Assembly (NCBI GenBank): GCA_963841915.1
Contig: CAWJEN010000006.1
Coordinates: 1,536,001 to 1,600,000 of the forward strand
DNA length: 64,000 nucleotides
DNA from: an uncultured Planctomycetota bacterium
Lineage (GTDB): Bacteria; Planctomycetota; Phycisphaerae; Tepidisphaerales; Tepidisphaeraceae
Direction of reading: 5' to 3'
This document shows, one piece after another, positions 7,313-48,434 of the stretch; position 1 is the stretch's first letter; each line of letters opens with the position of its first letter. Position numbers and translations under genes: made by a program. The notes beneath the pieces were generated by a model. It was not told the DNA's origin, ran no database searches, and was given only the letters and a program-made list of their open reading frames with translations.

Positions 7313-7484
7313 ATTCGTTAAGCCGGATAACGTCGAACGCCTCGGAGGGCAGAGTGGCCAAGGCGCTTGAGTGCATCGGTCCGGTGTGCTGTTCCGCGAC
7401 GGGTTGCGTCCTGCTCGCCTCAAACCACTGAAGTGGCATGGCCGGGGGTTTCCCGCCGTCGCCGGACGTTGCGAAGAGTGGGGC

Positions 7485-9407
7485 GTGACCCGCCTGCCTC
7501 TTCGATCCCGCCGTGCCGTCGGCATGAGCCGCGGCTTTACGCTGACGGAGCTGATGATCAGCGTTGTCCTCGTGCTGGTGCTGACGCTGGCAATCGCGTT
7601 GATTTTCGACACGACCAGCCGCGTGATCTCCAAGGCGACAGCCGTCCAGGTCGCCACCCGGAATCTCGACGCCGTCCGCACGACGTTGGCCCAGGATTTC
7701 ACCGGCAACGACGGGATCGACAGCGACATCTTCGTCGACACCGCCGGAGTCCTGCCGCTGAGTGAGCAGGCGATGATCGTGCTCAGCAGCGGCTACACCG
7801 CGACATGGCGAAACGAAGAAGACGCTGACAGCGACCTCAACGATTGGAGACTCATTTCAGACACCGGCACCATTGGCGATTGGATTGATGCGGCGCTGAG
7901 TGCAGATGTAGCCGGCGACGGAACGGAAGTAACCATCAATCCGCTCGCTTTCGGGTTGAGGTCGTTTCGCGTCGATCAATTCTCAATGTTTGCCAGCGGT
8001 GGCTTCGAGAGCGAGGTTGCGGTCGGAGCGGCAACGCCTTACCAAGCGGACAACGCACTGATTTATTACGGTCACCTGCGCGTGTTCAACAATGACTATG
8101 GCCAGGCTGCTGGCCTGCAGGATCCTGCTGCTTTCGGCGTTCCGGGTGTTCCTTACGCAGGCAATCCGGGCGGGACCGTCGGGCAGGAAAACGTAAACAA
8201 TCGCTTTGCCGACCAGTTCATGCTGGGCCGTGTGGCATTGCTTGCAGCGGCTCCCAATGCGTCTGATCCGACCGCGAGCGCAGATCTGTACGACCAAGAC
8301 TACTACACCTCGCCGGACGGCACGGCGTATCCGTTCGTGCGGCGGAACTGGAACTTCGTTCGAGAGAACAACCGAGCCTTCGGACCGCTTGCCAGCACGT
8401 CGCCGGTTCGCATCTATGACGGCACCTCGCTCGTCCCCGTGGTCGATGTCAACAGCACCAACATCGCCCTTCAGGCGGGAGTTGCAGACATCTTGGGCGC
8501 GTCCGTCTCGGAACTCCGCGAACGTTTCGACTTCATCATCGAGACCGACCCGATGGTGACCGGCGAAACAACGAAGCAGTATCCGTATACCACCGGTGAT
8601 GGAGGATTCGATCGTCTTCCGCGAGGCGGCGGCGCGAGCCAAGGCGGCAATACAGGCGGCGACTATTTCTCCTCGTGGTTCTGGAATGATGTGAACCGGT
8701 TTTGGATCAACCCGTTCGGCCAACAGCCGTCGACGGCACAAGGCGACGCACAGCGGTCACAGCTTCTTCTGCCCGGAGCGAGCAACTTCATTGTTGAATA
8801 TGCCGGCGACTACTTCGAGCAGAACCCGCTGACCGGGGAGATTGCCGACCAGGACGGCGACGGCGTTTTCGTCGGCCCCGACGGCGTGATTGACTTTATC
8901 GTGACGCCCTCCAACGCACGGGTCATCCGCTTCTATGGCTTCCCTCGTGACGTCGACGGGAACGGCTTCGCCGAGCTGTACTTTGATGGAATGATCACAA
9001 TGCCCGGAGCTTACACGTCGACCGACGTCTTGCCGTTAAAGGACATGGTCGGATTCACCGGCGTCACGCTCGGCGTGACAGAGTTCGGTGCACCGCTCAT
9101 CTTCCCGCACGAGAAGCGGGTCCCGATCGACGGACGTCTCGCAACGTACGGCGACTCGTTCGCGACAACCCCCGCGCCGTACGTGACGACCGGCCAGCCT
9201 TACCTGTGCGCGTGGTCGCCTGCGGAGATCAACGGCAAGATCCAATTCGACGGTTTCTCCGGCGGCGCTGCGGGCACACCGGACGTCTCCTTCGACTTCC
9301 CCCTCGGCCCAAAGCTCATCCGCTTCGTCGTCACCGCCACCGATCCCGAAGGGCGGCTCGAGACGCCGATCACCTCAGAGTTCGTCTTCGAGATCCCGGA
9401 CAACTAG
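7485..9407 (+). CDS. Large minor pilin, PilW/GspJ-like
   Basis: RG|FTLTELMISVVLV; L..D motif after the N-helix; C-terminal PKLIRFVVTATDP; start GTG 7485 or ATG 7524. Confidence 0.85.
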   Translation: MTRLPLRSRRAVGMSRGFTLTELMISVVLVLVLTLAIALIFDTTSRVISKATAVQVATRNLDAVRTTLAQDFTGNDGIDSDIFVDTAGVLPLSEQAMIVLSSGYTATWRNEEDADSDLNDWRLISDTGTIGDWIDAALSADVAGDGTEVTINPLAFGLRSFRVDQFSMFASGGFESEVAVGAATPYQADNALIYYGHLRVFNNDYGQAAGLQDPAAFGVPGVPYAGNPGGTVGQENVNNRFADQFMLGRVALLAAAPNASDPTASADLYDQDYYTSPDGTAYPFVRRNWNFVRENNRAFGPLASTSPVRIYDGTSLVPVVDVNSTNIALQAGVADILGASVSELRERFDFIIETDPMVTGETTKQYPYTTGDGGFDRLPRGGGASQGGNTGGDYFSSWFWNDVNRFWINPFGQQPSTAQGDAQRSQLLLPGASNFIVEYAGDYFEQNPLTGEIADQDGDGVFVGPDGVIDFIVTPSNARVIRFYGFPRDVDGNGFAELYFDGMITMPGAYTSTDVLPLKDMVGFTGVTLGVTEFGAPLIFPHEKRVPIDGRLATYGDSFATTPAPYVTTGQPYLCAWSPAEINGKIQFDGFSGGAAGTPDVSFDFPLGPKLIRFVVTATDPEGRLETPITSEFVFEIPDN

Positions 9408-9650
9408 TCGTCGCGCGGCGGCAAACGGCGGCTCATGGTATTGACTCGTCAGCATCCGCTTAGGCTGCCTGATCGCATTAGGGGACAGCCGCTGCGGAGC
9501 CGGGCATAGCGGCAGTGCCGGCGACGTCGAGTCGGCCTCATGAGTCGGGTGTGGCTTCGCGACACGTCGTGCAAGACGATGATGTCGCAGGCGGTATGGC
9601 GCACTGACTTTGCATTGCCCACTGGTTCATGGCGGCAATGCCATTGAGGC

Positions 9651-9881
9651 GCGGGCGGAGCCGAACGCTGCTACTTCGGTGCCGATCCATCTGCCTTCGG
9701 TTCCGAGTCCATGTCGGGCGGCTCCTCAGTGGCACGGAGCGGAACCGGCGGTTCAGGCTGCGGCATCGAGAGACTCCCGCTTGATGCCGCAACCGTTCAT
9801 GTCGGTGCCGACGCCGCCTTGGTTTGTGTCGACGCGGCCGTGCTCGGTGCCGCGGCGGGTCGTTGCGGAGCCGGCGACGGG
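9651..9881. repeat. 21-bp-period array, 11 units, conserved palindromic CGGNNCCG core with variable 13-bp spacers
   Basis: Cores start exactly 21 bp apart at 9656, 9677, 9698, 9719, 9740, 9761, 9782, 9803, 9824, 9845, 9866: cggagccg, cggtgccg, cggttccg, cggctcct, cggaaccg, cggcatcg, tgatgccg, cggtgccg, ttgtgtcg, cggtgccg, cggagccg. Confidence 0.85.
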
Positions 9882-10075
9882 CGATAACGCGGAGACTGTG
9901 AGGTCGAACCTTCACCGCGACCGATGTCTGAGCAGCCGCAGGGCAGATCGAGACCTTTGCCGAGCGGGGGTAGTGCTCGTCCCGGCCGCGTCAGCCGACG
10001 CCCGCAGCGGCGTCGAGCAGTTGCCGCTCGTTCGCGTCCTGCTTCCTTGCGTCCACCATCCCTAAACGGTTCATT

Positions 10076-10786
10076 ATGGCCGATGACTACCTGCCACGTC
10101 GGGAACTCTTGTTGAAAGCGTGGGCGATCAACTTTCGCAACACGATTTCGCAGTCGTATGTGTCGCTGGGTCTGACGACCGACGATGCGACACAGCTTCG
10201 CGAGCGGGTCGACGCGTTCGTCGCGGCCCTACTTGTGTCCGGTCAGCCTTCGACGCGGACAACTGTGACCGTTGCGGACAAGCGAGATGCGTCTGCTGCT
10301 ATGCGGGACCTGATCCGACGGCTGGTTCGACGCATTCAGAGCCTTCCCCATCTGACGAACGTGGAGCGGGAGAAGCTCGGGATCACGCTCCCGCACAAGC
10401 CGAAGCGGGTCGCGTCTCACAGCTCCAAGCCGCCGCTGGAGGTGCCGTTCGTGCACCTTGCGGCGATTCGGGACAGGCAGCTTCAGGTTCAGCTCGTCGG
10501 TGACAACGGCACCGGCCGCAAGCCAGACGGCGTCATCGGAGCCGTCTTGTACTGGAAGCTCGACGGCCAGATCAATGCGCCGTGGCATATGAGCGAGCTG
10601 ACGTCGCAGCGGACGGTCGTCATGGAGGTGCCTCAAAGCGTTCCCGGCGGCAGCGGCGTTTGGATCTCGGCCTGCTGGCTTAATCGCCGTCTCGAACGCG
10701 GACCGGCCGCAAGACCGGAACTGGCGTTCGTCAGTGACCCGCACTACGCGTCGCCTGCCTCGACCATGCCGCAGTTGGCTGCGTGA
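10076..10786 (+). CDS. Uncharacterised protein: helical N-domain plus beta-rich, possibly FN3-like, C-domain; ends QLAA
   Basis: Clean 236-aa ORF; DYLP..E..L..W..NF...LGLT and LGIT segments; C-domain KPDGVIGA...VWISACWLN..GP. Confidence 0.75.
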   Translation: MADDYLPRRELLLKAWAINFRNTISQSYVSLGLTTDDATQLRERVDAFVAALLVSGQPSTRTTVTVADKRDASAAMRDLIRRLVRRIQSLPHLTNVEREKLGITLPHKPKRVASHSSKPPLEVPFVHLAAIRDRQLQVQLVGDNGTGRKPDGVIGAVLYWKLDGQINAPWHMSELTSQRTVVMEVPQSVPGGSGVWISACWLNRRLERGPAARPELAFVSDPHYASPASTMPQLAA

Positions 10787-10840
10787 CGCGGGTGGTCGAT
10801 CGGTTTCCGCAGCCGATCGGACAGAGCGAAGAGTGCGGGC

Positions 10841-13800
10841 GTGAAGAACCGCTTTTCAGAAGGTCACAACCGGTCCGTCCGCCGCGGGTCGGCTCTGGTG
10901 GTGCAGACCCGCCGCCTGGGGCGATCGGGTGGTAGAAGGCGGCGAGGCGTGGTGCTGTTGTTCGTGGTGGTTTTGCTGACCTTGCTGGCGATCGTCGCCA
11001 GTGCGTTCCTGATCAGCACACGGTTGGCGAGTGGCCAAAGCGGCGTCGACGCGCGTGGCGGTCAGGTGTTCCAGGACGGCGTCGACGCCGAGGGCCAGAT
11101 CGTCGCGGTACGGGACCGGGCGATTGAGCAGCGTGCAGTTGCAAATCGCGTTGGATGTCTTCGAGACGGTCCGGGATAATCCAGCTGGCAACACCACGGC
11201 CGCCCGCACGATCGACTTCGCCAATGATCTTGCTGTGGCGGCCGACGCGTGCGACGGCCAACACGGGCTTTTACGGCAACAACAACGTTCCACCCAACCC
11301 CGCTGCGGCCGCAGGACCTGAACGTTTTGCGCCGATGCAGACGTACGTTGCTGTGGCTTATCCCGGCACCACGTTTCCGGCGCGGGAAACGCTGTCAACG
11401 CCGCGGCGGCGGTCGATGGGCGAGCGACTGGTTACCCCAACGGCGACCCGGCCTACGCCACGCCGGCGACGGCGTTGCGGTCTCCGTATTTTCCGCTCGA
11501 CGCACTTGGCGACACCGACCCGCACCTGGCCTCGGCCCGTCCAACGCCGACGGCCGGCATCGAGTTCGACGGTGCCACGCTCACGTTGCCCGGCGACTTG
11601 ACGGGCGACTACCTGTGGGAGCGGATCTCCGCTCCACCCGTCGGGCTGCCGGGGCTGAGCGATCGACAACGTTTTCGTCAATCCATTTGCGGCAGGCAGC
11701 TTTGCCGACCTCGACACAGCGGCGGATCGGCTGCTCTTGACGGAGCGATGCCGACGGTCATCCGGCAGTCTACCGGCGACGCCTTTGTCGAGTATGAGGG
11801 TGATGCCGCGGCCGAGTACGTCAACGACCGTATCCGCGTTTTCCCGGCTTGTTGTACGACGCTCGACGGCGGGCAACGCCTGCGAACGTCGATCCGGCAC
11901 CGTCAGGTGCCGACCTGATCTCTGCCCGCCGGTGACGCCGACGGTGACGGCGTCGCCGACGCGGGGCTTGTCCCGATCGTCTTCAATGAAAACGCATCCG
12001 TCGGCAACCCCAACCGCTACCTCGATCCGGCGACGAATCTGAGCTACACGCTCAGCTACCGTGTCGTCGACAACAACGCCAGCGTCAACGTCAACACAGC
12101 TCTGACGAGTCAGGGTGATTTGGCGATCCCGGCTGGCGTCGGCGCTGGCGTTGACGTGACGACGAATACCCTCGCCACACCGCAGACGCTCTACGAAGGG
12201 TTTGCCGGTCCGAATCGAGGCATCTGGCCGAGCAACGTCGGCGCCTATCAGTTGCAGCCGTTCCGGATCGGCGGGACGACGCTTGCCGACGATCAGTTCG
12301 GCGGCACGGCCGGTGAAGAACTCGGTGCTGACCAGATGGCTGACATCATGACCGAGCTGACCGGCGTCACCGCAAGTCAGCTCGACGACGACTCGCTCGC
12401 CGAGGTGCTTCTGCGCTTCAGGTGCGCCGGCTGCCACTCCCGATGTTGAGACAGCGACTGTGGGTGAACTGCTGGGGCTTGGCCTGACGACGCGACTCGG
12501 CCATCCCGCTCCTTTGTCGAGCGACGAGAATCCGACAATCAACGACCGGCGCTACGACGTTGGACGTCCATTTACCGACGCAGGTGCGACCAGAATCGCT
12601 GCTTCATCGTGGCGGCGGATACATTGATCAGTCGGCCGACAAGTCGCGGCTTGAGCGAGTTGCCAGCGACTCGCTGTGGATCGGCGCGGGGAACTACGTT
12701 GCCAACCCGCAGTTGAGCTTCGGTTCGTTCGTGCTGAATGATCCGATGGGAGTTGCCGCAACGGAGCAGCAGCGTCGGGCGTTATGGGCCGAGATGTTCA
12801 TGACGGCCGACCCAGACAACGCAGACTACGTCTACGACCGCGCCGACGCTGCTGGGTGGCGGCATCAGCTGTGCCGCTACCCGATCAGTCCGCGGAGCGG
12901 TCTCGTCGCCGAGAACGGCGTGAGCATGGCGTTCAGCCCGCTGCTGCTGGACCCGGCGGCGGCGTTCACGCACGGCGAGGCAAGGTGTCCGGCCGGCATG
13001 CCGCCGTACGCGTTGACGGCCGCTGATCCGCAGATTGCGACGGTGCGTCCGCCGGTAAAGGCGGGCCTGAACTCCGGCCGGCTTCGGCGAGTTGTGGCGT
13101 GCGTACTGGAACATCATGGCCGACCCGTCGGGCCCGGTCGCTGCCGCCGACTTTGCAGTGCCCGGCGACATCGACGACGCGACGACCCCCAACCCGAATG
13201 CGGAGTTCGAGCCGAATGTTCTTGTGACCGGCCTGCCAGCGATGATGAGCGACGAGCAACTGCTCCTGCTCCGCGCCGCCATCGCGGCGGTCAACACGAT
13301 GGACATTCGTGATCTCGAGCAAGCGATGGATATGGACGGCGCGTCGATGTCGACTTGGACAACGGCGATGCGACGATCGACGTCCGCCGCAGAATGGCGA
13401 TGCGGACATTACCGTGGCAGAGATCGATCTCGGCACTTTCGGCGGCGGGCACCGCTCAAGGCCCGCGTCTACGGCACCGAGGCTCAGCCGTTCATCGCGG
13501 AGTACGTCGTCGACTTCGACGTGCTCGGCACGGCGGTCGAGTACTGCGGCGGTCGAGCTGTTGAACCCGTACCCGTTCCCGATCAGATGGAGGCTGGTAC
13601 TCGTGGCGACCGATTCCGGCGGCGGGTGGAGATCCCGTATTTTTGCCGACTCTCGAGCGAGCAACCAACGGCCGGTCGCAGACACTCGATTGTCATGCCT
13701 GCGGCAACGGGCGGTACGATGGTGGAACGCTTGTCGTGACAAGCAGTGCGGCGCCGATCCTGCCGGTGTGACGCCGCCCGTCGCGTGATGTCGATGAGGC

Positions 13801-15535
13801 CGGGACGTCGACGGAGCGCCGACTGCGACCGCCGCGATGGACACTGCGACGTCGCGGTGATTGCCTCGCCCGCGGCGGCTGCCGGGTTCTTCGGTGAGGC
13901 GGTCTGTGCCATCGGCCGGCCAATGCGGCCGCTCCGCTCGCCCGAAGACCTGGTACCACTCGACATGGTCGACATCACAGGTACGGTGCCGGCTGAGCGA
14001 CGCCACCGGTTCCGCTATGCCCGCGATGATTCGCACGCGGTGGCAACGACGCCTCGCGGGACTGGAACGTTCAGTCTTCGTGGCGGATTACGACGCAGCG
14101 GCTGCCGGTCGTCGCACTTGATCCCGATACGACGCCGGTGCTCGACCAACTTCAGTGGTCACCCGAGTCGATCCCGCAAATCCGCATGCCAGGCGACAGC
14201 GGTTGACGCGGTGACCGATCTTGGTGCTCCGAATACGACTTCATGACGCCGCTTTCCCACGGCGGACTTCCCGTCGGTCCCGTGCTTCCGGGCCAATTGC
14301 CGCAACTGGTGCAACTGCTCCAACGTGGCCGTACGGCGGCTTTGCCCGGGCGGCGATGCGCTGACCGTGCCGATCGTCGGCAGCTACAGTTGTCACCAGT
14401 GCCGGTGGCTTCAGCTGGCTGTTCGGCCGGTCAGATCAACGCCATCTCGGACCAGCAGACGTCGAAACGGCTCAGCCAGGTGGAGACGGTGTGACTAAGG
14501 CGCAAGACTGCCTCTCGCTTTCGATGAGACAGGTGTGCCCGTCTACGACTGGGCCGCGGACGCGCTGAATTACCTCACGGCCCTCGACAACTTCGGCGAC
14601 GACACGTTCCCGAATGCAGACCTGCGCTTTGCCGGGATCGACTACACACTCGACACGATGGATACGACGCCCGGCTTCGGAGCGGACGACGGACTGCCGG
14701 ACGCGTTCCTGACGCAGTTCAACAGTGCCGCCTCGCCGTTCTTGCTGACGCCGTCTTTCGCGACGCCGGTGGGTGGCACCGACACGACGGTCCTTGGTCC
14801 GATCGATAACGACGGCAACGGCCGATACGGGCTGAGTGTGCCGCAGGTCTTCGGCTCGCTTGCCACCGACTTGGAGGCTGTGACCGAGCGGTATCGCGAG
14901 GCGTTCCTGCCGGCCCAGGGCAAGATCAACCTGCTCGACCACGGGTGCCGGCATTCTCAAGACGTTGCCGCTCGTCTCCTCAGCAGCCGGTGGCGTTGAC
15001 GCGACAAACGCCGTCGCGGCTGACGCATTCGTTCTGAATGTGTTCGACGCCGGATTGGATACCGACGCCAGCGGCACGATCGATGTCGGTGAGGCGCTGG
15101 TGGGCTTGTCTTCGTTGTCACCGTTCTACATCGCCAACAGCGTCACGACGGCGACCAACAGCGGCGACCTGAGTGGCCTGATCGCCGGGTACAACACGGC
15201 TGGTGTTGATGCCGACGCGACCGACTACTACGACGTGACCGACGGCACTGCCGGCGATGTCGATGCCGCCATTGTCGACGTCGCCCGCCTCAGCAACCTC
15301 ACCACGCTCCAGAGCGACAGCTACACCGTCTACCTCATCGTTCAGGCGTGGGACGGCTTCGGCACGCCTCAGGCTCGTATCGTCAATCAGGAGCGTGTCG
15401 CATTCATCGTCGATCGCAGCGGCATCTATCCGGCAGGGCACGGGATTCCCGGGCTGCCGGGCGAAGTCGGTTATGCCGACGCCGATGAGTTGCTCGACGC
15501 GCTCGAAGATCACGCCGATCACGCCGGGTAACTGA
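10841..15535 (+). pseudogene. Giant PilX/GspK-like minor pilin or tip subunit, disrupted by many indels (pseudogene or unpolished sequence)
   Basis: N-terminus RRRG|VVLLFVVVLLTLLAIV (no Glu+5, PilX/GspK style); internal DADGDGVAD and YRVVDNNASVNVN; C-terminal LSNLTTLQSDSYTVYLIVQAW...FIVDRS; the coding path switches frame more than ten times. Confidence 0.75.
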
Positions 15536-34453: not shown

Positions 34454-35698
34454 TTAAACGTTACCTTGGGGCGCGATCGCCTGTTCTTTGCCCGACGTTT
34501 CAGCATCGGCGTGGTCTGAAAAGTGCTTCGCCAAGGCTGCGGTAATCTTCTGTGACTGGGCCTCAAAGCCGTCAAGGTGCTTGCGAATCGCCGCCATGGC
34601 CCCTTCAGCGTCGGTAGGTAAACCCTGGTCCAATGGTACCAGCCGCTTCGTCATTAAACGGGTCCACTTTCCCGTCACGTTGGATCCTCCGAGCTTAAGG
34701 CCGAGGTCGTTATCAGGATGTGTCAGGGCTTTGATCAATGTGTTCCGTGCTTCCTGATCGTCCGTTGGTCCCACTTGGACATAGAACCGTAGATGGTTCT
34801 TCCCTGCATCGAAGTAGACACGCAGCCACCCGGTCGGCTTGAACTGGGCGATGGACCCGATGGGCGGTAGCAGATCAGCCCAAGCCGCAGGCTGACAGTC
34901 CACACGCCTGCCGGTCACGTTTAACACGAGCCAACTGCCGCGCGACTCAAGCTCGCCGCGGATGTCTGAGAGCAGTCCGCGACCCTGCTCCTTGATGCGA
35001 GCGAAGATGAGGTCGAGCGCCTGCCGGTGGTTCGCGTACAGGCGGTCGCAGAGCGCGTCTAGATCGGGATCGGGCATGTAGCGGGTGGCGACAAGACGAA
35101 GGTAGTGGCGGACGAAGGCGGCGACGTCGGCGTTCATCGACGTGGCGTTGATTTCCGTCGCCCGTGAGAGGATGCGGTAAAGGTCGCTGTAGCCGTAGGC
35201 AACCCACTCGTCATCGCTCGGAACGTCACCGTCAGGGGTGAGGAAGACGAAGAGCGGCTTCAGACCCGGAAACTCCGTCAGCACCGTCTGCCGGTAGCGG
35301 GCGAGTTGATTCGAGTGTTCCCCCGAGAAGACCTTGTTCTCGACCGCGATCACGAAGTGGGGTGGATGACGATGCACGAGCAGCAGGTCGATGTTTCGCC
35401 ACTCTCGTCGCACCTCGACATCCCCGAGCGGCTCACCGTCGACCTCTGCCGGGCTCAGTGGTCGCGTCGTCGGATCGACCCGCCGCAGTACGTCCATCAG
35501 CACCGGCCGAAGGAAGGCGGCACCCAGTCCGTGAGTCTCGGATGGGTTGAGGAGCCAGGCGAGGAAGTTGCTGTGCCGGATCTCAGCCGTCGCGACGCCA
35601 AGGGCATCAAAGACATTGAACCTCCCGACCCGCGCCTCGAGCACGCCGAGGTCGTCGTTGTCGCAGACGAAGCGGTCCAGCGCCTCAAGATCAGTCAT
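34454..35698 (-). CDS. PD-(D/E)XK nuclease family protein (PDDEXK_4-like)
   Basis: FNVFDALG...EIRHSNFLAWLL.P...HG, REW..IDLL, IAVENK, QL.RY, FLTPDG. Confidence 0.85.
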   Translation of the reverse strand: MTDLEALDRFVCDNDDLGVLEARVGRFNVFDALGVATAEIRHSNFLAWLLNPSETHGLGAAFLRPVLMDVLRRVDPTTRPLSPAEVDGEPLGDVEVRREWRNIDLLLVHRHPPHFVIAVENKVFSGEHSNQLARYRQTVLTEFPGLKPLFVFLTPDGDVPSDDEWVAYGYSDLYRILSRATEINATSMNADVAAFVRHYLRLVATRYMPDPDLDALCDRLYANHRQALDLIFARIKEQGRGLLSDIRGELESRGSWLVLNVTGRRVDCQPAAWADLLPPIGSIAQFKPTGWLRVYFDAGKNHLRFYVQVGPTDDQEARNTLIKALTHPDNDLGLKLGGSNVTGKWTRLMTKRLVPLDQGLPTDAEGAMAAIRKHLDGFEAQSQKITAALAKHFSDHADAETSGKEQAIAPQGNV

Positions 35699-35717: not shown

Positions 35718-35810
35718 GTAGGGTGGGCCCCGGCCCACCTCTGGAAGACCGGAAAAAGACGCGAGTCGGAAGAAGACGCCGACCGGATGGTGGGTCGGGG
35801 CCCACCCTAC
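35718..35810. repeat. GTAG-type REP doublet (REPIN-like)
   Basis: gtagggtgggccccggcccacc (35718-35739) and inverted ggtgggtcggggcccaccctac (35789-35810). Confidence 0.75.
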
Positions 35811-35855
35811 GCGTCTCACGCCCGGTGCCACGACACAGCGTGTAGTAGGGTTGCC

Positions 35856-35975
35856 TGGTGCCACGGCTTGAGCCGCCGTCTGCGGCGGGCAAGCCGTGTC
35901 GGTGACGTCGTGCGCCGCAACACGGTTCCGGACACGGGTTGCCCGCATCGGAATGCGGCTCAAACCGTGGCACCA
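35856..35975. repeat. REP/MITE-like element (copy B of 25502-25607)
   Basis: tggtgccacggcttgagcc...ttgcccgcatcggaatgcggctcaaaccgtggcacca. Confidence 0.8.
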
Positions 35976-35993
35976 AGCTGCATTCTCTTCTTG

Positions 35994-36140
35994 TTCCCGC
36001 GCAAGTCTGGTTCGTGGTCGAACAAGGTTGGCTCCTGATCGCGCAGAATGAGATGTGGGTCGCGCAAGTCGGGATGTTGATCGCGCCCGAAGGAGTCTTG
36101 ATCGCGCAAGATTGAATCTTGATCGCGCAAGATTCGATTT
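35994..36140. repeat. 21-bp-period degenerate array, 7 units, core TGATCGCGCAAG
   Basis: Units start at 35994, 36015, 36036, 36057, 36078, 36099, 36120. Confidence 0.8.
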
Positions 36141-36383
36141 TGCGCTACCGCGTGGGGAGGTTGTCGGACGTGATACCGCGTTTGCCGTGCGTCAGGGGCG
36201 TTCGGGGCCGTCGGCGGTGGAGGGAGGTCCGGGAAATGCGGGTGTCGGGGGTGTTGGGGGTGTGTGGGTTTGGGACGGGGTGTGAGGGGGGGAAAGCGGG
36301 TGGTGAGCGAAAAACTTCAGCTCGTCTTCAGCGGTGTCGGGGCGGGGTCGATGAGGCGGGTGAGCTTGGCCGGGGACGTTTGC

Positions 36384-36443
36384 GTCCCCCGTCCCCCGTC
36401 CCCCGTCCCCCGTCCCCCGTCCCCCGTCCCCCGTCCCCCGTCC
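36384..36443. repeat. Heptamer tandem repeat (GTCCCCC)x8 plus a partial copy
   Basis: Direct count; (GGGGGAC)8 on the minus strand. Confidence 0.95.
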
Positions 36444-36568
36444 GCTCGACGGCCGTCGGCCCGTGGGCGACGTTCGAGGTTTGCTTCGGCGTGGCGACAC
36501 AAGCCCCCGCCCAGGCCACGACCGCGACGGTGACCGAAGAGAACGAGGGCCTGCGGATCGCCGCATAA
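36440..36568 (+). pseudogene. C-terminal gene remnant ending EENEGLRIAA
   Basis: VRSTAVGPWATFEVCFG...LRIAA* has protein-like composition, is followed by a terminator-like hairpin and has no plausible N-terminus. Confidence 0.55.
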
Positions 36569-36606: not shown

Positions 36607-36642
36607 TCCCTGCGCCCCTGCGTCCGCTGTGCGGGCGCAGGG
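36607..36642. terminator. GC-rich hairpin between convergent genes
   Basis: ccctgcgccc...gggcgcaggg. Confidence 0.55.
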
Positions 36643-36644
36643 GT

Positions 36645-46260: not shown

Positions 46261-48213
46261 ATGGAGGACCAGTCTCAAACCTTGTTTAACCCGCCAGAGT
46301 CGTTCCAGCGGCAGGCCCGTGTGCAGTCGATGGAGGAGTACCGCCGCCAATGGCAGCGGTCGGTCGACGATCCGGAGGCCTTCTGGGCACAGGCGGCCGA
46401 TGAACTGCGGTGGTTCAAGAAGTGGGACAAGGTCCTGGAGTGGAACGAGCCTTACGCCGAGTGGTTCAAGGGCGGGCACATCAACGCAAGCGTCAACTGC
46501 CTAGACCGCATCGTCGACAGCGGTCGCGGCGAGAAAACTGCAATCCTTTGGGAAGGCGAGCCGGTCGAAGACGACAACCAAACCCCCGCCACGCCGCGTG
46601 AGGTTTCGCGGATCAGCTACCGCGACCTGCTGGCCGACGTGTGTCGCTTTGCTAACGCGCTCAAGGTGCAGGGTGTACAGCGGGGCGACATCGTCACGAT
46701 CTACATGCCGATGGTGCCCGAGGCCGTCGTTGCGATGCTGGCGTGTGCGAGAATCGGTGCGCCCCACAGCGTCATCTTCGGCGGCTTCAGTTCGGCCGCC
46801 ATTGCCGACCGCCTAGCCGACGCTAAGAGCAAATTCGTCGTCACCGCCGACGGTGGGTGGCGGCGCGGCAAAATCATCCCGCTCAAGGCCAATGTCGACG
46901 AAGCCGTTCGGCAAAGCGAGGGCGTCGAGAAGGTCATCGTCCTCAAGCGGTGCGATAATGACGTGACGATGGGCGAACGCGACGTCTGGTGGCACGACGC
47001 CGTCGCCGACATGACTGACCGGTGCGAGCCGGCGTCGATGGACGCTGAAGATCTGCTGTTCGTCCTCTACACCAGCGGTTCGACCGGCAAGCCCAAAGGC
47101 ATCCTGCACAGCACTGCCGGGTACCTGCTGCACACGTACCTCACGTGCAAGTACGTCTTCGACCTCAAGGACGAAGATGTCTACTGGTGCACGGCCGACG
47201 TCGGCTGGATCACCGGGCACAGCTACATCACCTATGGCCCGCTCGCAATGGGTGCGACCGTCCTGATGTACGAAGGTGCCCCAAACTTCCCAGACTTTTC
47301 GCGGTTCTGGCAGATGGTCGAGCGGCACCGCGTGACCGTCTTCTACACGGCACCCACTGCCATCCGCGCGTTCATGAAGGCCGGACGCAACCTGGTCGAC
47401 GCCAGTGACCTGTCGAGCCTGTCGCTCCTCGGCACCGTCGGCGAGCCCATCAACCCCGAGGCGTGGCGGTGGTACCACGAGGTCATCGGCGACGAGAAGT
47501 GCCCCATCGTCGACACCTGGTGGCAGACCGAAACCGGCGGCCACATGCTCAGCCCGCTGCCCGGTGCGACGCCGGCGAAGCCCGGCAGTGCAACGCTCCC
47601 CGTCTTCGGCATAGACGCCGCCGTCGTCGACCGCGACGGCAAGGAGGTCCCGCAGGGCGAGACCGGATTGCTCGTCATCCGCAAGCCCTGGCCTTCGATG
47701 CTCCGCGGCATCCTCGGCGACCCGGAGCGGTACGTGAAGACCTACTGGAGCGACGTCCCCGGCATGTACTTCAGCGGCGACGGCGCCCGCCGCGACGCCA
47801 ACGGCTACTTCGAAATCACCGGCCGCATGGACGATGTCCTCAACGTCAGCGGCCACCGCCTCGGCACCGCCGAAGTCGAAAGCGCATTGGTCGCCCACGA
47901 GTCCGTCGCCGAGGCGGCCGTGGTGGGCGTGCCGCACGAGGTGAAGGGCGAATCGGTCGCCGCCTTCGTGATCCTCCGCGAGGGCTTCGAGCCCGGCGAC
48001 GATCTCAAGGCCGCACTGCTCAAGCAGGTCGCCACCGAGATCGGCAGCTTCGCCCGCCCCGACAACCTCACCTTCGCCGACGGCCTGCCCAAGACTCGCT
48101 CGGGCAAGATCATGCGCCGCCTCCTCCGCGAAGTCGCCGCCGGCGGCGAGGTGAAGGGCGACGTCACGACGCTCGAGGACATGAACGTCGTCAGCAAACT
48201 CCGCGAGGGGTGA
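46261..48213 (+). CDS. acs: Acetyl-CoA synthetase
   Basis: [60 protein letters not shown]. Confidence 0.96.
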
Positions 48214-48377
48214 GCCCGACGGCGGGCACGACGGTCTGGCTGTCGGGCTTCAACGCCAACGTCAATGGGCAGACGGGCCCGGCCTGCCTGCCGATCTCGA
48301 CCAACCTGCCCGGCGGCGCCTCGACCGTCCGGACGGACGTCGCGGCCCCGGTGAAGGAACTCCGCATCGCGGCGTGA
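48210..48377 (+). pseudogene. C-terminal remnant resembling the 10076..10786 protein, ends KELRIAA
   Basis: GTTVWLSGFNANVNGQTGPACLP aligns by eye with GSGVWISACWLNRRLERGPAARP; followed by terminator. Confidence 0.55.
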
Positions 48378-48399: not shown

Positions 48400-48434
48400 A
48401 AGGCCGGGCCCGCGAGGGCCCGGCCTTGTCGTTT
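48400..48434 (+). terminator. Intrinsic terminator
   Basis: aaggccgggccc-gcga-gggcccggcctt followed by gtcgttt. Confidence 0.7.

Follow-up and report, generated by a model that had tools for sequence, protein, structure and literature searches.

Introduction

parC-type centromeres carry tandem phased sites by a cognate gene, and the array described here can be likened to them. Iteron origins also place tandem helically phased sites beside the gene for their cognate Rep protein, which binds iterons cooperatively and loses binding when the iterons are shifted by half a turn (PMC4980987). At the core defense hotspots cDHS1 and cDHS2 of Pseudomonas aeruginosa, variable defense cargo lies between conserved flanks, exchange by homologous recombination has been proposed, and the building and regulation of integrase-free hotspots are stated to be an open question (PMC10250203). 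Here, a candidate array-gene module is examined that was first noticed in 64,000 nucleotides of an uncultured Planctomycetota bacterium (assembly GCA_963841915.1, contig CAWJEN010000006.1, positions 1,536,001 to 1,600,000; hereafter the window, in genome G000), where an array of degenerate 21-bp units and a gene for an uncharacterized 236-amino-acid protein lie between two pilin-like genes. Look-alikes in the Atlas come mostly from Planctomycetota and Bacteroidota, and one relative carries the label Phycisphaeraceae. Comparison with homologous loci points to the array-gene pair as an undescribed scaffold for collecting or controlling defense genes.

The likeness to iteron origins is geometric, with 529 of 545 unit steps in the arrays studied here measuring exactly 21 bp. 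Unlike iterons, the units are dyad symmetric, the motif is different at each locus, no AT-rich unwinding stretch is present, and the loci are chromosomal. Rep is a winged-helix protein, whereas the protein family described here is predicted to consist of a helical bundle plus an FN3 domain and belongs to no Pfam family, and no partition ATPase was seen at the annotated loci. Like cDHS1 and cDHS2, the loci can hold variable cargo between conserved flanks at one site, and a haplotype swap between contigs C2 and C6 of G000 fits recombination exchange. The flanks differ from those described for the two hotspots in being a phased array and its partner gene rather than core single-copy genes or RNAs, and they are multicopy, patchy (18 of 41 genomes), at unrelated sites, and often free of cargo.

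The WYL regulators BrxR and CapW (PMC9122601) resemble the family in being regulator-like genes that co-occur with unrelated defense systems and inverted repeats. In contrast to these regulators, 133 family members gave no WYL or helix-turn-helix match, the fold is another one, 8 to 20 phased sites stand where one or two boxes are described, the array can be up to 14 kb away, and no operator copy is found at the promoter of cargo loci. VIPR (period 5), TIGR-Tas (period 18), and CRISPR (period 60 to 79) likewise have a periodic array beside a single uncharacterized gene (10.64898/2026.10.21.760802; 10.64898/2026.04.26.720927); compared with these guide-array systems, the module has a period of 21, lacks unique spacers, shows a DNA-type constraint, and carries its array upstream of the promoter. 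No description of an array-gene module was found in the literature surveyed, with subscription papers and preprint supplements outside its scope. No mention of the module was found in the main text of two 2026 preprints on noncoding elements, one of which mentions uncharacterized repeat arrays that may include those described here.

Results

A 21-bp array lies upstream of the family gene

The set of loci consisted of 90 from a search of relatives (30 supplied with the search and 60 picked from its table mostly by E value, with fragments and most contig-edge matches left out) and 8 further loci from the window's own genome, one of which gave no usable extraction. An array was counted as present when its period-21 signal exceeded the 99th percentile of 400 random pieces. 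By this criterion, an array lay upstream of the gene at 63 of 94 testable loci and downstream at 3 of 93, a count in which most loci come from four genomes and are hence not independent. These proportions bear out the original prediction of a dispersed array-gene module, in which homologues elsewhere would also have adjacent arrays. Two distant families of the phylum provided 15 additional loci, all with an array near the start codon. A separate scan added 8 new loci, among which 6 had an adjacent upstream array, 1 lay at a contig end, and 1 had no array; none of 10 loci in that scan had a downstream array.

Copy number of the family is patchy, and remnants are common. Family members were present in 18 of 41 relatives, with 0 to 20 matches per genome in tallies that take in one unpublished genome (G006) used for no other result here, and in 11 of 201 genomes of the phylum, where at most 14 candidates were scored per genome. 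Within G000, all 14 family genes or remnants had an array upstream within 15 kb (7 adjacent and 7 at 5.9 to 14.3 kb), and 2 had one downstream. The chance expectation in this test, for which 21 arrays were picked from 37 regions, was about 8% per side; two gene pairs among the 14 are haplotypes of one site, and the case at 48 kb in the window may be a coincidence. Twenty further regions were fetched, of which 9 had an array 2 to 9 kb upstream, 2 had a weak adjacent array, 4 had none in at least 14 kb, and 5 ended at a contig edge. One 21-bp array in G000 (C5:946853-947419) has a motif that flips orientation half-way and lies inside an open reading frame (ORF) ending in AA, with no family gene nearby.

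By sequence, the array behaves as a series of sites on double-stranded DNA

Properties of the array were determined from 55 arrays with at least 8 units and a unit identity of at least 0.43, after two others had been dropped by hand (one coding-like, one a 7-mer repeat). Units are 43 to 87% alike, and their variable positions recur between units. A dyad-symmetric consensus is seen in 41 of the 55 adjacent arrays and in 11 of 20 that lie at a distance from the gene, and nearly every locus has its own motif. Compensatory change within units was not found (51 axes up, 55 down), and the minor alleles at paired core columns were G-T in 134 cases and A-C in 134, showing no G-U bias. With a palindromic consensus, no covariation, and no G-U bias, the array behaves as a set of sites on double-stranded DNA. 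A replication origin was considered and rejected, as no AT-rich element adjoins the arrays; a 30-nt window of at most 30% GC occurred on the outer side of 1 of 55 arrays and on the gene side of 3 of 55, versus 3 of 55 after the gene.

Type III toxin-antitoxin systems also have a periodic array beside one gene, and an array that works as RNA (a guide, a sponge, or a type III-like antitoxin) or that encodes a heptad-repeat peptide would be compatible with a small excess of open frames, a borderline wobble signal, and a reverse-strand sigma-28 −10 box that faces the array at 12 of 53 array loci versus 0 of 35 others (expected, 0.7). This explanation is very improbable, given that the array shows neither covariation nor G-U bias, that unit order had no influence on folding (mean z, −0.09; z below −2 in 4 of 55 arrays), and that the variable positions are related between units rather than being unique spacers. 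Neither a hairpin in each unit nor one long RNA hairpin was supported by the covariation, wobble, and unit-order tests. Coding for a heptad peptide was not supported either: conservation followed no codon-position pattern, and some arrays were closed in all three sense frames or had 1-bp slips.

Motif and protein sequence are uncoupled overall and linked in some clades

The original prediction held that each protein variant pairs with its own core motif. Motifs are indeed locus specific and some clades keep theirs, while an overall coupling was not found: in 45 adjacent pairs, motif and protein similarity were uncorrelated (Mantel r = −0.01, p = 0.6), and proteins that are 72% identical can have unrelated motifs. 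The proteins of L064 and L065 are 54% identical and keep a common motif, and one cargo-bearing clade (63 to 71% identity) keeps its motif in three genomes with unrelated cargo, at a similarity of 0.66 to 0.86 versus a background of 0.32. This pattern fits punctuated switching of specificity. A motif code in single residues was not found; residues 3 to 5, 21, and 46 differ in pairs with different motifs and agree in pairs with the same motif, in a post hoc comparison of 10 pairs.

The overall uncoupling could also mean that a factor of the host or of a phage reads the array, or that the array works through its DNA shape or as a landing site prone to recombination, with the linked protein doing something else and being co-inherited. 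In keeping with this explanation, several arrays in G000 have no family gene in the vicinity or just a remnant of one, and defense-type genes are found on the outer side of some arrays too. It is nonetheless improbable, because a single host factor could hardly account for dozens of unrelated palindromic motifs in one genome, and because an upstream polarity that is fixed over 14 kb, together with clade-linked retention of the motif, implies a cognate pair.

Array and gene bracket defense cargo

Twenty islands from 7 genomes and 4 genera carry 1.9 to 14.5 kb of cargo between an upstream array and a gene that otherwise seems to lack one, with array and gene bracketing the cargo in fixed polarity; five of the 20 come from regions chosen for a GNAT gene. 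PADLOC matches at an E value of 1e-20 or better were obtained for 21 of 55 cargo ORFs from 11 islands versus 5 of 108 ORFs in flanking DNA, some of the matches in both sets being generic kinases or helicases. Cargo types include type I, IIG, and II restriction-modification, an AriA/AriB-like (PARIS-like) pair, DarG, and RmrA, and islands in G023 and G018 hold complete type I-E cas operons with CRISPR arrays. In all, 11 of 20 islands are clearly defensive, and the others contain imuB-dnaE2, metabolic, or unknown genes.

Cargo can change while its flanks stay. Contig C2 and part of C6 in G000 are two haplotypes with common flanks and different cargo, and their breakpoints fall shortly past the array (or past one common nuclease-related gene) and immediately upstream of the promoter. 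A single protein clade, its array motif unchanged, has different cargo in G000, G002, and G003; in G000 and G003, its flanking gene appears by eye to be the same. Smaller traces were also seen in G000. An exact 37-bp copy of the start of a family gene leader lies inside cargo (C2:33855-33891), and a 75-bp junction repeat brackets one cargo gene (C6:1338391-1338465); both are possible scars of cassette insertion. At C5:498501-499413, two different arrays adjoin each other, one of them bearing the motif found in the C2 22-kb island; the neighboring cargo is shared with the C6 1.304-Mb island, which suggests shuffling between islands.

The main rival explanation treats everything from array to gene as a mobile element that has no enzyme of its own and is moved in trans. 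The array would then serve as an end, an origin of transfer, or a packaging signal, the DNA would be coated or licensed by the protein, and defense genes would be cargo. Such an element would account for the fixed-polarity bracketing in the 20 islands and for the patchy copy number and many remnants, but the clade that keeps apparently the same flanking gene in G000 and G003 with different cargo in three species behaves as a scaffold. Island L155 is flanked by a 67-bp direct repeat; however, no end sequence or target duplication recurs across 21 stretches, where junction-like repeats occurred in 3, each different. Repetitive extragenic palindrome (REP)-like palindromes lie before 20 of 55 arrays and after 4 of 54 genes, using a pattern drawn by eye from these loci, but no AT-rich stretch lies beside the arrays. 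The N domain of the protein has weak matches to coat proteins of filamentous archaeal viruses, which are probably within the noise for helical bundles (see below), and collections of plasmids, phages, and viral contigs gave no family match with one query each. A further point in favor of an element comes from the pilin site discussed below, which is empty in three relatives and holds a 26%-identical, nonsister copy (by a quick tree) in a fourth genome. On balance the mobile element is unlikely. The module had originally been called dispersed and apparently mobile; its dispersal and high turnover are evident from the range of 0 to 20 matches per genome, the 18 of 41 relatives that carry it, and the empty sites, and self-mobility is not. 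The islands differ from an integron cassette array in that no integrase was present among the cargo ORFs scanned and no attC-like site is repeated.

Several cargo ORFs deserve separate mention. A type I-E cas5 gene with a C-terminal HNH domain match lies inside an array-gene island of G023 (L153:10523-11638), and an imuB-dnaE2 mutagenesis cassette makes up the whole cargo of one island in G003 (L136:3489-8921). Five large cargo ORFs (L127:1919-6715, L132:5574-9074, L139:6171-7925, L142:4507-6672, and L152:13942-16836, the last compared with Pfam only) have hardly any match to Pfam or PADLOC, or none, and are candidate new defense genes. Outside an array, the ORF at L031:3-746 has a beginning that resembles, by eye, a Cas9 RuvC segment; it had no Pfam match at an E value of 1e-4.

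The family protein is predicted to join a helical bundle to an FN3 domain

The family protein is matched by 1,646 representatives at an E value of 0.001 or better. None of 133 aligned members had an informative Pfam match, family sequence had no match in PDB, PADLOC, or PHROGs, and a word-index protein search returned the query itself as the sole match. The predicted model (predicted local distance difference test [pLDDT], 92) has a four-helix N domain and a beta sandwich, the latter assigned to FN3 by structural match (Z, 13.2; root mean square deviation [rmsd], 1.8; 95 residues). The N domain alone gave no clear fold match, with a best Z of 7.5 on a model of pLDDT 65. Its matches to coat proteins of SIRV2-type filamentous archaeal viruses (Z, 5.1 to 5.8; rmsd, 3.1 to 4.6; 72 to 87 residues), made with a pLDDT-65 single-sequence model, are probably within what helical bundles give by noise. 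Across the family, both domains have conserved Arg and Lys positions, the nonsynonymous rate (dN) is below the synonymous rate (dS) in both domains in the 15 pairs computed, and the domains have been shuffled between family copies. Homodimer prediction reached a score of 0.26 versus a mark of 0.42.

A sigma-28-like promoter and an AA tail are lineage-specific features

A motif of the form TCAAG-spacer-GCCGAT occurs about 100 nt before the start codon in 60 of 88 leaders, as scored with a profile trained on the 88 leaders themselves (background, 2.6% of 1,061 ORFs). The motif lies between array and gene, a position that puts the array upstream of the promoter and outside the transcript of the gene. 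The form is like that of Escherichia coli FliA promoters (PMC4183435), with a spacer one base longer. The genome encodes FliA, and other high-scoring ORFs look by eye like chemoreceptor and FliD genes.

The C terminus of the family ends in AA in 124 of the 150 top matches (83%), versus 145 of 2,222 long genome ORFs (6.5%), and the genome's transfer-messenger RNA (tmRNA) tag ends in FAMAA. In Caulobacter, nonpolar C-terminal residues act as a signal for ClpXP, and chemoreceptors are among the substrates (PMC8973945). The family shares the nonpolar C-terminal residues, and by analogy its members might be degraded and expressed at a specific stage. Both the AA tail and the sigma-28-like promoter are absent from all 15 loci in the two distant families that keep the array and are thus a host-lineage add-on. 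The ssrA-like degron originally proposed is in keeping with the enrichment of the tail, as a trait of one lineage rather than of the module. Across G000, the sigma-28-like motif precedes 16 of 145 AA-ending ORFs versus 49 of 2,073 others, with chemoreceptor-like genes among them; a swarmer-stage proteolysis regulon is possible.

A GNAT protein of about 350 amino acids, mostly ending in AA too, has a match within 1.5 kb at 16 of 98 loci; in the separate scan, its gene stood directly downstream of the family gene at 4 of 10 loci. Strong GNAT matches occur only in genomes that also carry the family. In 9 islands, the GNAT gene lies beyond the array and points outward, in most cases with a −10 box some 10 nt ahead of the start, and the FN3 gene is 6 to 13 kb off. 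The GNAT belongs to no named family, and neither it nor the FN3-family protein had a PADLOC match.

This association raises the alternative of an addiction or abortive-infection module, in which the FN3-family protein would be an unstable, array-bound repressor or antitoxin and the GNAT a toxic effector released upon its decay. The proximity of the two genes, the confinement of strong GNAT matches to family-bearing genomes, the resemblance of the tail to the tmRNA tag, and a patchy multicopy spread typical of such modules would all suit it. Known type II GNAT toxin-antitoxin systems are obligate two-gene operons with a ribbon-helix-helix (RHH)-type antitoxin; here, the GNAT is absent from most loci, that of the window included, and the partner is predicted not to be RHH. 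The GNAT mostly ends in AA as well, its transcription at 9 loci starts from its own promoter and runs away from the array, and PADLOC matches neither protein. An addiction module is therefore decidedly improbable.

The module at the pilin site is cargo free and looks eroded

The window copy was originally outlined as a block of about 1.4 kb between PilW-like and PilX-like genes, periodic from position 9408. Its gene stands (10076..10786, plus strand; 236 amino acids, ending PQLAA), and the 21-bp array is confined to 9649..9879 (11 degenerate units, no strand), positions 9418-9648 being at null level for 21-bp periodicity (p = 0.69). Units of the array share a dyad core, CGG-N2-CCG, with the remaining positions variable, and have a mean identity of 45% (dyad z, 3.8; period-21 z, 4.8 genome-wide). 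Tandem Repeats Finder does not detect this array, and its column conservation was reached by 0 of 20,000 frame-preserving rotations. Two possible relic units of an older array, 9424-9444 and 9529-9549 (within 9424..9549, no strand), are offered as a lead only; they are the two best matches to the profile of the G004 array at the same site and lie 105 bp apart, in phase.

The leader (9880..10075, plus strand) measures 196 nt, close to the 190 bp first estimated, and its family sigma-28-like promoter is weak or lost (best scores, 6 to 7 bits). The protein is predicted to comprise a helical bundle (amino acids 10 to 101), a linker, an FN3 domain (117 to 222), and a low-confidence tail; it has a long tree branch and has lost several of the family's basic residues. 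A hairpin with a 9-bp stem follows the stop codon at 10797..10819 (plus strand), one base inside the predicted span, with no U-tract after it. Taken together, the window copy looks like a cargo-free, eroding example of the module.

The flanking genes are host genes, an N-methyl-motif PilW-like gene on the left (7371..9407, plus strand) and a PilX-like gene on the right (10841..15531, plus strand). As had been supposed, the two are normally adjacent: they lie 60 to 100 bp apart in G001 and G002, and G003 likewise has no module there. A pilus component is ruled out by this site being empty in 3 of 4 relatives (G001, G002, and G003) and by the many unrelated neighbors of family genes, so that the gene is no fixed, syntenic part of the pilus locus. 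In G004, the site does hold a module, whose protein is 26% identical to the window copy and not its sister in a quick tree; separate insertions in G000 and G004 are likely. In the window, three reading frames each hold part of the PilX-like gene, which forms one 1,508-amino-acid ORF in G002; it is fragmented in G001 too, from either pseudogene formation or assembly indels.

Two further copies are present in the window

The similar layout noted near 36 kb was found again, with an array, a remnant ending LRIAA, and a hairpin. This second 21-bp array (35994..36140, no strand; z, 10) has 7 units with a different core of the GATCGCGCAAG type. It is followed by a sigma-28-like promoter (36325..36356, plus strand; 16.2 bits), by 8.7 copies of a 7-bp tandem repeat in place of the gene body (36383..36443, plus strand), by the 42-amino-acid C-terminal remnant of a subfamily-2 gene (36440..36568, plus strand), and by a hairpin with a 14-bp stem (36614..36644, plus strand). 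The link between this remnant and the pilin-site gene had been called architectural rather than a demonstrated homology, which proved too cautious. The remnant matches the C terminus of a second subfamily (E value, 5e-8), itself weakly tied to the main family (hhalign, 76%), and by sequence it is a homologue, beyond a likeness of architecture.

At 48 kb, the related C terminus and hairpin of the original prediction were also recovered. A 55-amino-acid remnant of a main-family gene, again ending LRIAA (48210..48377, plus strand; hhalign, 97% to the main family), starts immediately after the stop codon of an acetyl-CoA synthetase gene and is followed by a hairpin with a 12-bp stem (48400..48427, plus strand). 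That the 36-kb array and the 48-kb remnant are the ends of one island is unlikely, the intervening genes being of housekeeping types (ABC transporter, DinB-type polymerase, uracil glycosylase, and acetyl-CoA synthetase). Just outside the second array lies a PD-(D/E)XK nuclease gene (34457..35698, minus strand; PADLOC PDC-S26; E value, 9e-93), and REP-like palindromes are found there at 35727-35811 and 35853-35978. Elsewhere in the family, 7-bp tandem repeats follow many of the genes.

Discussion

The pairing of array and gene, its direction, the DNA-type constraint, the folds, the promoter motif, the cargo content, and the allelic cargo swaps are best joined by an explanation in which the protein coats its array and organizes or gates neighboring accessory genes. 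This explanation is tentative, and its probability falls somewhat short of even. The array would be a cis-acting double-stranded DNA site of about 8 to 20 dyad boxes, one every two helical turns and all facing one side. The helical-bundle-plus-FN3 protein would bind it as a symmetric unit and polymerize along it, giving an iteron- or parC-type nucleoprotein platform, and array and gene would together form a sedentary yet exchangeable scaffold. The complex may then organize accessory genes beside the array or gate them, by silencing them or limiting them in time. Defense cassettes that land between array and gene would be retained, and recombination between the conserved flanks would exchange them. 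The host would, in Phycisphaerae, have given the gene and its GNAT partner a sigma-28-like promoter and an AA tail of the ClpXP type, resulting in a short pulse in the flagellated stage. Protein-DNA binding, oligomerization, proteolysis, stage-specific expression, and the effect on cargo genes are what we infer from these patterns.

Several observations weigh against a coating protein that governs its neighbors. Loci are clustered in a few related genomes, and neither domain is, as modeled here, a known DNA-binding fold. No alignment column predicts the motif (family-wise p of at least 0.66), and close pairs conflict over which domain would be the reader: L019 and L032 have a common N domain, L038 and L039 a common FN3 domain, and in both pairs the motifs are unrelated. 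No clear defense gene is present in 9 of 20 islands, cargo genes are oriented either way relative to the array, and the gene's promoter in cargo loci has no motif copy (mean rank, 10.05 of 20), a result on which simple autoregulation through an operator there also fails. Finally, one wobble test was borderline (p = 0.036), and open frames over arrays numbered 47 of 52 versus about 43 of 52 in the null, on both strands.

A bolder version of the coating explanation can be formulated, although it is rather unlikely. The module would be an enzyme-less device for gene capture or transfer, in which a locus-specific protein nucleates on the two-turn-phased palindromic array, coats the DNA through the cargo to its own gene, and marks that stretch for protection, silencing, or transfer. 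Fast switching of specificity would allow many orthogonal pairs per genome. In motile Planctomycetota, the device would operate during the swimming stage and be removed by proteolysis, so that the control or exchange of defense genes becomes coupled to the cell cycle.

For integrase-free hotspots, the module offers a two-part handle, a 230-bp array and the gene for a 230-amino-acid protein, between which restriction-modification, PARIS-like, and entire CRISPR-Cas loci are found. New defense genes could be mined with the array as a simple marker: neither Pfam nor PADLOC has a match for several of the cargo ORFs. If binding is cognate, the family would represent a new DNA-binding architecture, a helical bundle plus FN3, with dozens of different natural palindromic targets that could serve as orthogonal parts.

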